The notes under the pieces were generated by a model. The model saw nothing but the letters and a program-made list of their open reading frames with translations, was not told the origin of the DNA and ran no database searches. A DNA stretch of 4,004 bases from a virus. Its lineage: Duplodnaviria > Heunggongvirae > Uroviricota > Caudoviricetes. Position numbers and translations under genes: made by a program. The stretch lies in IMG/VR virus record IMGVR_UViG_2802429253_000007, one strand, 5' to 3'. Positions 2,068 to 3,490 of the stretch are shown here, in pieces; within the stretch, counting starts at the first letter, position 1; each line of letters begins with the position of its first letter.

Positions 2068-2079
2068 AAAAGCACCTGT

Positions 2080-2106
2080 GAAGCAGAGTTAAACGTGGTC
2101 TGCTTC
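2080..2106. promoter_or_regulatory. Perfect 8-bp inverted repeat GAAGCAGA-N11-TCTGCTTC immediately upstream of the lysozyme RBS (candidate operator or 5'-UTR hairpin)
   Basis: Read directly from the sequence: 2080-2087 GAAGCAGA and 2099-2106 TCTGCTTC are exact reverse complements. It sits between the mor terminator and the lysozyme SD. Function is inferred only. Confidence 0.3.
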
Positions 2107-2120
2107 ATGGTGCCGGAGGC

Positions 2121-2146
2121 ATAAAAAAAGCCGGATTTACCGGCTT
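2121..2146 (-). terminator. Rho-independent terminator downstream of mor
   Basis: On the minus strand: stem AAGCCGG / loop TAAAT / stem CCGGCTT followed by TTTTTAT, starting 6 nt after the mor stop codon. The stem is short (5 GC pairs plus 2 AU pairs) but the U-tract is clear. Confidence 0.6.
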
Positions 2147-2152
2147 CATTGA

Positions 2153-2602
2153 TTAAGGGCGTCGTGGCGGACGACGAACGGGATGAGGCAGGTTCGGGGA
2201 GGGGTAAAACAAATCCGGCTGGTATTTATTGCGCTCCAGACGTCGCATCCGTTTGATGGCCTTGTAGACGGTTTTATACGTCACTCCGTAACGCTGAACC
2301 AGTTCAGGAATATTATGGCCGTTAAAATCACGCCAGATACGCATATCCCGGACAAGATTCTCCAGAATATTCCCCCTCGGAACATAAACCTGCATCCCGC
2401 CGATATGGCGACAAATCGCCACAACCAGCTCAAGGGAATGAGCAGGGTCTGCGCCAATCCGGGCCAGCTCTTTACGCAGCAGTGCGTTCAGTTCAGAAAG
2501 TAACGCCGGATAAGCGGTGTTTTCCTGGTAATCATGAAGATATTCCAGAACGCTGTCGTCCCGGAGGTCTTCGAATAAATCCTGCTCTTTCATCTGTTTC
2601 AT
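2153..2602 (-). CDS. mor: Mor (middle operon regulator) / Mor-C family transcription activator, 149 aa
   Basis: Translation closely resembles phage Mu Mor as I recall it (DLFEDLRDD..., PALLSELNALLRKELARIGADPAHSLELVVAICRHIGG.QVYVPRG, RDFNGHNIPELVQRYGVTYKTVYKAIKRMRR). ATG at 2602-2600 overlaps the gemA stop (ATGA), the same gemA-mor arrangement as in Mu. It carries a C-terminal Pro/Arg-rich extension. Confidence 0.88.
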   Translation of the reverse strand: MKQMKEQDLFEDLRDDSVLEYLHDYQENTAYPALLSELNALLRKELARIGADPAHSLELVVAICRHIGGMQVYVPRGNILENLVRDMRIWRDFNGHNIPELVQRYGVTYKTVYKAIKRMRRLERNKYQPDLFYPSPNLPHPVRRPPRRP

Positions 2603-3164: not shown

Positions 3165-3191
3165 AAAAGGGGGCGGTGCGGCAACACCGCC
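3165..3191 (-). terminator. GC-rich hairpin plus short T-tract just upstream of the gemA RBS (weak intrinsic terminator or attenuator candidate, or mRNA structural element)
   Basis: Minus strand reads GGCGGTG-TTGCCG-CACCGCC (7-bp stem, 6-nt loop) followed by CCCTTTTCT, then the GGAGG SD of gemA. The 3-nt spacer and only four T residues make it suboptimal as a terminator. Confidence 0.3.
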
Positions 3192-3223: not shown

Positions 3224-3490
3224 ATGAAAAACAGTGAACAGCCTTATGATGTTGCAGGGTATGTCATTGCCTCAAGGTTGCTGATACTCCTTGTCAGAAA
3301 GGGGCTAATTACCGCAGAGGAAGGCAAAACGATCCTCGAAGCCGCAGCAAGCGGAGCGGCAGAGGCTCCGGCATTGAGAACAACGAATAATCCCATCCTG
3401 CAAATATCACAGCTAATCACTGATACCATCAGTTTGTTAGACCAAGATTCTGATGAATATCAAAAGCCTCAGCCATCTGAGCATCCGTAA
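3224..3490 (+). CDS. Candidate small protein (88 aa) encoded opposite to the surrounding operon; hypothetical
   Basis: ATG 3224 preceded by AGAGGAAA (SD with about 8-9 nt spacing, AT-rich spacer). Product is hydrophilic and helix-like (MKNSEQPYDVAGYVIASRLLILLVRKGLITAEEGKTILEAAASGAAEA...). Against it: the 3' end overlaps the minus-strand 104-aa gene by about 60 nt, it contains several rare codons, and a competing minus-strand ORF covers the same DNA. Confidence 0.35.
   Translation: MKNSEQPYDVAGYVIASRLLILLVRKGLITAEEGKTILEAAASGAAEAPALRTTNNPILQISQLITDTISLLDQDSDEYQKPQPSEHP
3244..3429 (-). CDS. Alternative candidate small ORF (61 aa), mutually exclusive with the plus-strand ORF at 3224-3490
   Basis: ATG at 3429-3427 overlaps the stop of the upstream 104-aa gene (TGATG), an arrangement typical of translational coupling. 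No SD; product is Ser/Ala/Val/Leu-rich with almost no charged residues, which could be a small membrane peptide or an antisense shadow. Confidence 0.2.
   Translation of the reverse strand: MVSVISCDICRMGLFVVLNAGASAAPLAAASRIVLPSSAVISPFLTRSISNLEAMTYPATS

Follow-up and report, generated by a model that had tools for sequence, protein, structure and literature searches.

How are the late genes of a Mu-like phage switched on when it carries a single activator gene of the Mor/C family? The textbook model for transposable phages is the early-middle-late cascade of Mu, which runs from Mor to C to the late promoters: the middle promoter Pm is that of the operon E18-E19-gp20-C, whose product C in turn activates Plys, PI, PP and Pmom. 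The DNA analysed here, called the window, is a stretch of 4,004 nucleotides (nt) from the Caudoviricetes record IMGVR_UViG_2802429253_000007 of IMG/VR. On its minus strand, gemA is followed by mor, a hairpin with a run of seven T residues, and the gene (lys) for an endolysin of glycoside hydrolase family 108. A model's earlier reading of the letters alone, the sequence-only reading, had noted one Mor/C gene between gemA and the lysozyme gene and proposed either a cascade collapsed to two tiers or a C-like gene elsewhere. Gene order, the Pfam match of the activator and a gap without sizeable minus-strand open reading frames (ORFs) bear out the single gene. Judging from comparison with Mu and with related prophages, we consider it probable that the cascade has two tiers, in which Mor directly drives Pm-type promoters of the lysis and head operons. 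The features at this early/late junction are listed below in the order of transcription, with lengths in amino acids (aa) or base pairs (bp).

3150-2599, minus strand: gemA (gp16) homologue, the last early gene ahead of mor (Pfam GemA, E = 7e-33)
2602-2153, minus strand: mor, 149 aa (Pfam Mor, PF08765)
2156-2151, minus strand: A/T-rich TTAATC at the position of Mu Pm -57 to -52 (proximal UP-element subsite), placed by the Mu register and alignment
2150-2135, minus strand: putative Mor-binding 16-bp dyad AATGAAGCCGGTAAAT, equivalent to Mu Pm -51 to -36 (AGTAAAGCCGGTTAAT)
2147-2123, minus strand: hairpin and T-run, GAAGCCGG-TAAAT-CCGGCTTT, with an 8-bp stem and a 5-nt loop
2112-2107, minus strand: candidate -10 hexamer CACCAT, 22 bp downstream of the dyad, where Mu has TATCCT
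2106-2080, minus strand: inverted repeat GAAGCAGA...TCTGCTTC, found by folding, which starts right after the hexamer and ends 2 nt before AGGTG
2099, minus strand: predicted transcription start, by analogy with Mu Pm, whose +1 lies 7 nt past the hexamer
2077-2073, minus strand: AGGTG, ribosome-binding site of lys
2067-1471, minus strand: endolysin, glycoside hydrolase family 108 plus PG_binding_3, with its ATG at 2067 (Pfam Glyco_hydro_108, E = 1e-23; PG_binding_3, E = 3e-17)

By sequence similarity, the activator is best assigned as a Mor orthologue, not as a generic Mor/C-type protein, because it resembles Mor more than C (identity of 63% to Mu Mor compared to 32% to Mu C), its recognition helix is Mor-like (VTYKTVYKAIKRMRRL in the window and the nearly identical VTFNTVYKAIRRMRRL in Mu Mor, compared to the different LSQPQIYQIIARQRKL in Mu C), and its gene directly follows gemA. 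Residues 31-131 match Pfam Mor with E = 3.6e-30 and 104.6 bits (cutoff 24.9), and the protein matches PHROG 532, "late transcriptional activator", with E = 5e-41. Weak Pfam matches to HTH_28 and HTH_23 cover residues 94-121. The beta-strand linker GGxQxYxPxG is invariant, with G68, G69, Y73, P75 and G77 unchanged in the alignment with Mor and C. Mor/C proteins activate, in concert with sigma-70 RNA polymerase, promoters that have no -35 element. They are small (about 100-150 aa), acidic in the N-terminal half and basic in the C-terminal one (PMC2582627). The window protein has 13 D+E and 7 K+R residues in its N-terminal half, compared to 6 D+E and 17 K+R in its C-terminal half.

The region between mor and lys can be aligned with the middle promoter of Mu, for which the activator site has been mapped. 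In Mu Pm, the Mor dyad occupies -51 to -36, centred at -43.5, with 5-bp inverted repeats flanking a GC-rich spacer of 6 bp (PMC4390567, PMC4287176). Mutagenic primers set the register, with GTAAAC at -57 to -52 and AGTA beginning at -51 (PMC4390567), and the Mu site is therefore AGTAAAGCCGGTTAAT and the -10 hexamer TATCCT. In the curated Mu record AF083977.1, Pm spans 9163-9233 and encloses a predicted terminator (9179-9200); thus the Mor site of Mu shares bases with the 5' arm and loop of a hairpin. From the mor stop codon onward, the Mu sequence is TAA-ac-AGTAAAGCCGGTTAATCCGGCTTTTTTTACGTCCTCAA-TATCCT and that of the window is TAA-tc-AATGAAGCCGGTAAATCCGGCTTTTTTTATGCCTCCGG-CACCAT. The window dyad is identical to the mapped Mu site at 13 of 16 bases and stands in the same register after the mor stop: it starts 2 nt beyond the stop codon and overlaps the 5' arm and loop of the hairpin, and the TTAATC upstream of it overlaps the stop codon itself. 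The -35 region is CCGGCT, the same as in Mu. The window element and Mu Pm share an orthologous activator, a dyad with a GC-rich spacer and a nested hairpin with a T-run, and the window likewise appears to lack a -35 element and has its candidate -10 hexamer 22 bp past the dyad; they differ in the hexamer (CACCAT compared to TATCCT) and in the left half-site (AATGA compared to AGTAA). A consensus scan of the gap gave no constitutive sigma-70 promoter, and inspection of the same 85 nt found no C-type dyad (ATTAT-N6-ATAA[C/T]) like those of Mu Pmom and Plys.

This homology also relocates the promoter. The sequence-only reading had squeezed it into about 55 bp after the terminator, and the alignment with Mu Pm instead puts the activator site over the 5' arm and loop of the hairpin. 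Of the spacings proposed then, the 6 nt between mor and the hairpin should be 5 nt, counted from the TAA stop codon (2155-2153), and the 85 nt given for the distance from the terminator to the lysozyme ATG is correct as a length but spans the entire mor-lys gap; from the end of the T-run to the ATG the distance is 55 nt. The gap holds no minus-strand ORF of at least 30 aa. The hairpin folds with a minimum free energy of -12.6 kcal/mol (z = -3.2 compared to shuffled sequences) and has five GC pairs in its stem. With the form of a GC-rich hairpin followed by a U-run, it is predicted to be an intrinsic terminator of the early operon, nested in the promoter. An Rfam scan over it gave only a sub-threshold chance match, to sroD, at 25 bits compared to a gathering score of 50.

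Conservation in relatives separates this element from its surroundings. The window is 97.3% identical to a prophage of Escherichia coli PSS-15, which is about 34 kb long, is inserted in aaeB and spans the c repressor gene to com-mom. The element upstream of lys is kept almost base for base in 12 related prophages and phages, and also in Mu, and so is not a chance hairpin. We aligned 21 sequences, namely 10 copies upstream of lys, 10 copies upstream of the head-protease gene, and Mu Pm; among these relatives are ten loci (L007-L016) from Pluralibacter, Raoultella, Klebsiella, Serratia, Kluyvera and Brenneria. In all 21 sites the dyad core and positions A2 and T6 of the hexamer are invariant at fixed spacing, and the flanks are unconserved. 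Position 2 (A) and position 6 (T) are the two key bases of the sigma-70 -10 element.

The promoter-like module is present twice. An exact 26-mer, TGAAGCCGGTAAATCCGGCTTTTTTT, occurs in the mor-lys gap of the PSS-15 prophage and again upstream of its head-protease gene, with 0 repeats expected by chance. The second copy sits in a 214-bp gap ahead of the protease gene, about 7.7 kb downstream of the lys copy and beyond the window, at a location corresponding to that of PI in Mu. Searched as GAA[AG][GC]CGGT[AT]AATCC with 0-1 mismatch, the core has exactly two sites in each complete genome, and the pair recurs in the relatives and in the Klebsiella phage Kp4866-3. When up to 3 mismatches were allowed, the further matches, at 2-3 mismatches, were all intragenic and noise-like, leaving two intergenic sites at 0-1 mismatch. 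In six relatives, the T-run and part of the stem are gone from the protease copy (for example, TTTCTTCTCCC), but the core is still there, followed at 22-23 bp by the hexamer GACACT or CACACT. Because core and hexamer outlast the T-run in these copies, the selected function appears to be that of a promoter and not of a terminator alone. The loop variant, TAAAT or TTAAT, is identical between the two copies in 11 of the 11 genomes that have both; no column of the Mor alignment splits the two groups defined by this variant. In Mu, where the Pm module is present once as a promoter and drives E18-E19-gp20-C, position 30679 inside the baseplate gene gp47 holds a further core, near-perfect with 1 mismatch (AAAGCCGGTAAATCC), that lacks a suitably spaced -10 hexamer and is possibly a chance match. 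Upstream of the protease promoter copy there is also a conserved block (TGTGRTACGATG ... TTAAACG-N10-CGTTTTTAAACG; L001 29380-29480 in PSS-15, with equivalents in L007-L016) that is similar to what Mu has around its annotated strong gyrase cut site (L004 4380-4440).

The element travels with lys and not with mor. A variable ORF comes between mor and the element in 10 of 10 relatives outside E. coli and also in E. coli RIVM_C019217, and the element remains beside lys in every case. The intervening ORF is moron-like and encodes either a membrane protein of 107 aa or a secreted protein of 160-170 aa (for example, L009 10387-10707 and L017 1923-2402). Direct abutment of mor and the hairpin is confined to the E. 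coli sub-lineage of the window, in which this ORF is absent. The window Mor ends in a 17-aa Pro/Arg-rich C-terminal tail (YPSPNLPHPVRRPPRRP; 2153-2206, minus strand). Neither Mu Mor nor any of the relatives has this tail, which probably arose from the deletion that took out the moron.

A second activator was also looked for outside the window. We searched by tblastn at permissive E-values and word size 2, using three queries: Mor from the window, and both Mor and C from Mu. No second Mor/C gene was found in the whole PSS-15 prophage, including its right end, in the complete 33-kb genome of Kp4866-3, or within 10 kb on either side of mor in the ten relative loci; apart from mor itself, no match in these sequences was better than an E-value of about 0.01. 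The proposal of a C-like gene elsewhere finds no support in the sequences scanned, and the collapsed cascade is the alternative that we favour. Among phage records that match the activator, 36 of 50 have a single match, and two matches occur only in Mu, D108, SfMu and Yersinia relatives of Mu. On this count of records, a single Mor/C gene appears to be the rule outside Muvirus.

Taken together, these features make the following sequence of events the most probable. Early transcription from the early promoter Pe would yield Mor and end at the hairpin. Mor would then bind the dyad at 2150-2135, which stands in place of a -35 element, and recruit sigma-70 RNA polymerase to the weak hexamer CACCAT at 2112-2107. 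Transcription would start near 2099 and run into lys, the E18 homologue, the membrane proteins, TraR, a releasin homologue and onward, and the second copy of the module would switch on the operon of the head protease and capsid. Such a compact module would shield the late genes from early read-through and yet let Mor turn them on.

Several observations weigh against direct activation by Mor, and they are shared in part with other explanations. The candidate -10 hexamer fits the consensus at only 3 of 6 positions, and the window dyad is less symmetric than that of Mu (AATGA/TAAAT compared to AGTAA/TTAAT). The concordance of loop variants between the two copies could result from shared ancestry or gene conversion. 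Some of the stem changes in the second copies are symmetric and compensatory, which would suit an RNA hairpin as well as a palindromic protein site. It could be argued from the weak hexamer, these changes and the canonical form of the hairpin that the element is only a terminator, that partial read-through or antitermination accounts for expression of the lysis genes, and that Mor acts elsewhere or is vestigial. We find this quite unlikely, since conservation extends beyond the stem on its 5' side and, on the 3' side of the T-run, for about 30 bp, as far as the hexamer with its invariant A and T, and since the protease copies without a T-run retain core and hexamer. Moreover, the element matches, in sequence and in register, an experimentally defined Mor-dependent promoter, and across hosts in which identity of the flanking proteins is only about 65% its stem and loop do not vary, a constancy beyond the needs of a terminator. 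Another possibility is a site at which some other protein binds or recombines DNA, or else a small DNA repeat unrelated to transcription activation; either would account for a perfect palindrome-like repeat that occurs twice per genome, with one copy adjoining the block that resembles the gyrase site region of Mu. This explanation is highly unlikely given that the repeat is invariably found immediately upstream of an operon's first gene, oriented with transcription and accompanied by a -10-like hexamer at the spacing of Pm, and that its Mu counterpart has been mapped as a Mor site by genetics and footprinting.

The remaining difficulty for the two-tier cascade is its reach. With just two Pm-type sites per genome, and none ahead of the tail genes or com-mom in PSS-15, it does not by itself account for expression of the tail and mom genes. 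In Mu, Pmom needs C, which is absent here. One interpretation is that there is a further tier that depends on a factor outside the Mor/C family, such as a product of the lys operon that is needed for the tail and mom genes; the TraR/DksA-type protein encoded at 255-28 is a candidate, and its gene is kept in the lys operon in all 12 relatives. We consider a tier of this kind unlikely. Nothing indicates that the TraR homologue activates anything, and only short gaps separate the genes from the protease gene to the tail-fibre genes, so that one long transcript from the second promoter could suffice; a further tier would, in any case, be compatible with Mor acting directly at lys. Under direct activation by Mor, the tail and com-mom genes may be co-transcribed or may need another factor. 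At the right end of the PSS-15 prophage (L002 4399-5353), com-mom has a cluster of GATC sites upstream, as in Mu. By inspection, we rejected the region upstream of com-mom as a Pm- or C-type site; it contains a lone ATTAA/TAAAT half-site and no hexamer at the right spacing.

The inverted repeat that follows the -10 hexamer raises an additional possibility for control of lys. It is present in 21 of 21 promoters, with a sequence that varies by lineage and arms that always pair. In 19 of the 21 it begins at the base after the hexamer, and in two protease copies of the PSS-15 type it begins two bases later. With its 3' arm it overlaps the Shine-Dalgarno sequence of the protease copies, and in Mu the start codon of E18. 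Because the 5' arm lies upstream of the transcription start, as judged from the +1 of Mu 7 nt past the hexamer, the stem would form only in read-through RNA. Terminator, Mor site and inverted repeat might therefore act as a three-part gate that ties late expression to the origin of the transcript. The hairpin would stop early read-through and the same DNA would serve as the Mor site, while the stem in any read-through RNA would lie against or over the ribosome-binding site, such that only transcripts initiated by Mor would be translated efficiently. We regard a gate of this sort as improbable.

The surrounding genes place the junction in a layout that is largely that of Mu. Outside the region from gemA to lys, the window contains the following features.

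3743-3429, minus strand: gp14-like ORF
3224-3490, plus strand: gp15-like ORF, antisense
1469-1242, minus strand: 75-aa homologue of Mu gp18 (E18), 70% identical to it in amino acid sequence
1249-848, minus strand: hydrophobic protein of 133 aa in the place of Mu E19; position and hydrophobicity, judged on inspection, make it a holin candidate
860-252, minus strand: 202-aa protein (weak match to Pfam GTA_holin_3TM, E = 1.4e-3, below the cutoff; PHROG 1544)
255-28, minus strand: TraR/DksA-type C4 zinc-finger protein, in the lys operon (Pfam zf-dskA_traR, E = 7e-11; PHROG 54, E = 4e-20)

The GemA protein of the window is 80% identical to that of Mu, and the end of gemA overlaps the start of mor by 4 nt; a gemA stop/mor overlap is also found in Mu. 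A terminator-like GC-rich hairpin at 3172-3191 on the minus strand (GGCGGTGTTGCCGCACCGCC then CCCTTTTCTG) lies just upstream of gemA; it falls inside the early operon and faces the point where the antisense gp15-like ORF starts. The endolysin also matches a PHROG endolysin group (E = 3e-54), and inspection of its sequence showed no N-terminal membrane segment. The 133-aa hydrophobic protein belongs to PHROG 12596, a group of unknown function, and no sequence similarity was found between it and Mu gp19; in AF083977.1, Mu E19 is annotated as a protein with four transmembrane segments. The TraR/DksA-type protein could act on RNA polymerase late in infection.

Compared to Mu as a whole, the PSS-15 prophage (L001 14014-43537) is a mosaic. 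Identity to the proteins of Mu is 98-100% for c, ner and A, compared to 92% for gam, 82% for gemA, 62% for Mor and about 27-50% for the head and tail proteins. Its tail-fibre gene contains a collagen-like tandem repeat of about 1.2 kb, built of GPQGE and GPKGDT units (L002 2140-3340). The two lineages differ in what lies downstream of the shared promoter. Between the Pm module and a different endolysin, of the signal-arrest-release (SAR) type, Mu carries E18-E19-gp20-C, a terminator and Plys; in the lineage of the window, the module directly precedes the endolysin operon, with the second copy at the head protease, and the E18 homologue, which is first in the Mu middle operon, comes after lys. 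The arrangement in the window resembles Plys of Mu in that a putative activator-dependent promoter, apparently without a -35 element, stands directly ahead of the endolysin gene with a terminator before it (AF083977.1). It differs from the C/Plys system in its activator, only 32% identical to C and with another recognition helix, in a site that is not C-type, and in the lack of a C gene. One Mor/C gene each is found in BcepMu (gp01), Vibrio martha 12B12, Mu-like elements of Pasteurella and Shewanella, and Klebsiella Kp4866-3. Of these, Kp4866-3 has the entire arrangement, including both promoter copies; most of the single-Mor/C phages are only 30-39% identical in Mor, and the likeness described here is one of gene count. 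The literature searches that we ran turned up no description of the promoters of single-Mor Mu-like phages.

The proposed two-tier wiring is a modest variant of the well-known Mor/Pm system, common in enterobacterial prophages; it changes no major concept and would not surprise a specialist. It does offer a rule for annotation, namely the core GAA[AG][GC]CGGT[AT]AATCC followed, after 22-23 bp, by a hexamer nAnnnT. The natural variants of the Mor site may be of use for structure-function work, for which cryo-electron microscopy models now exist. Because most Mu-like phages have one Mor/C gene, it is more parsimonious, as far as gene content can tell, that the two-tier state is ancestral and that C is a duplication of Mor in the lineage of Mu. 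The analysis presented here suggests that widespread enterobacterial relatives of Mu have the same Mor/Pm hardware wired straight to their lysis and head operons, in keeping with the view of C and the middle operon as an elaboration specific to Mu, plausibly derived from a duplication of Mor.

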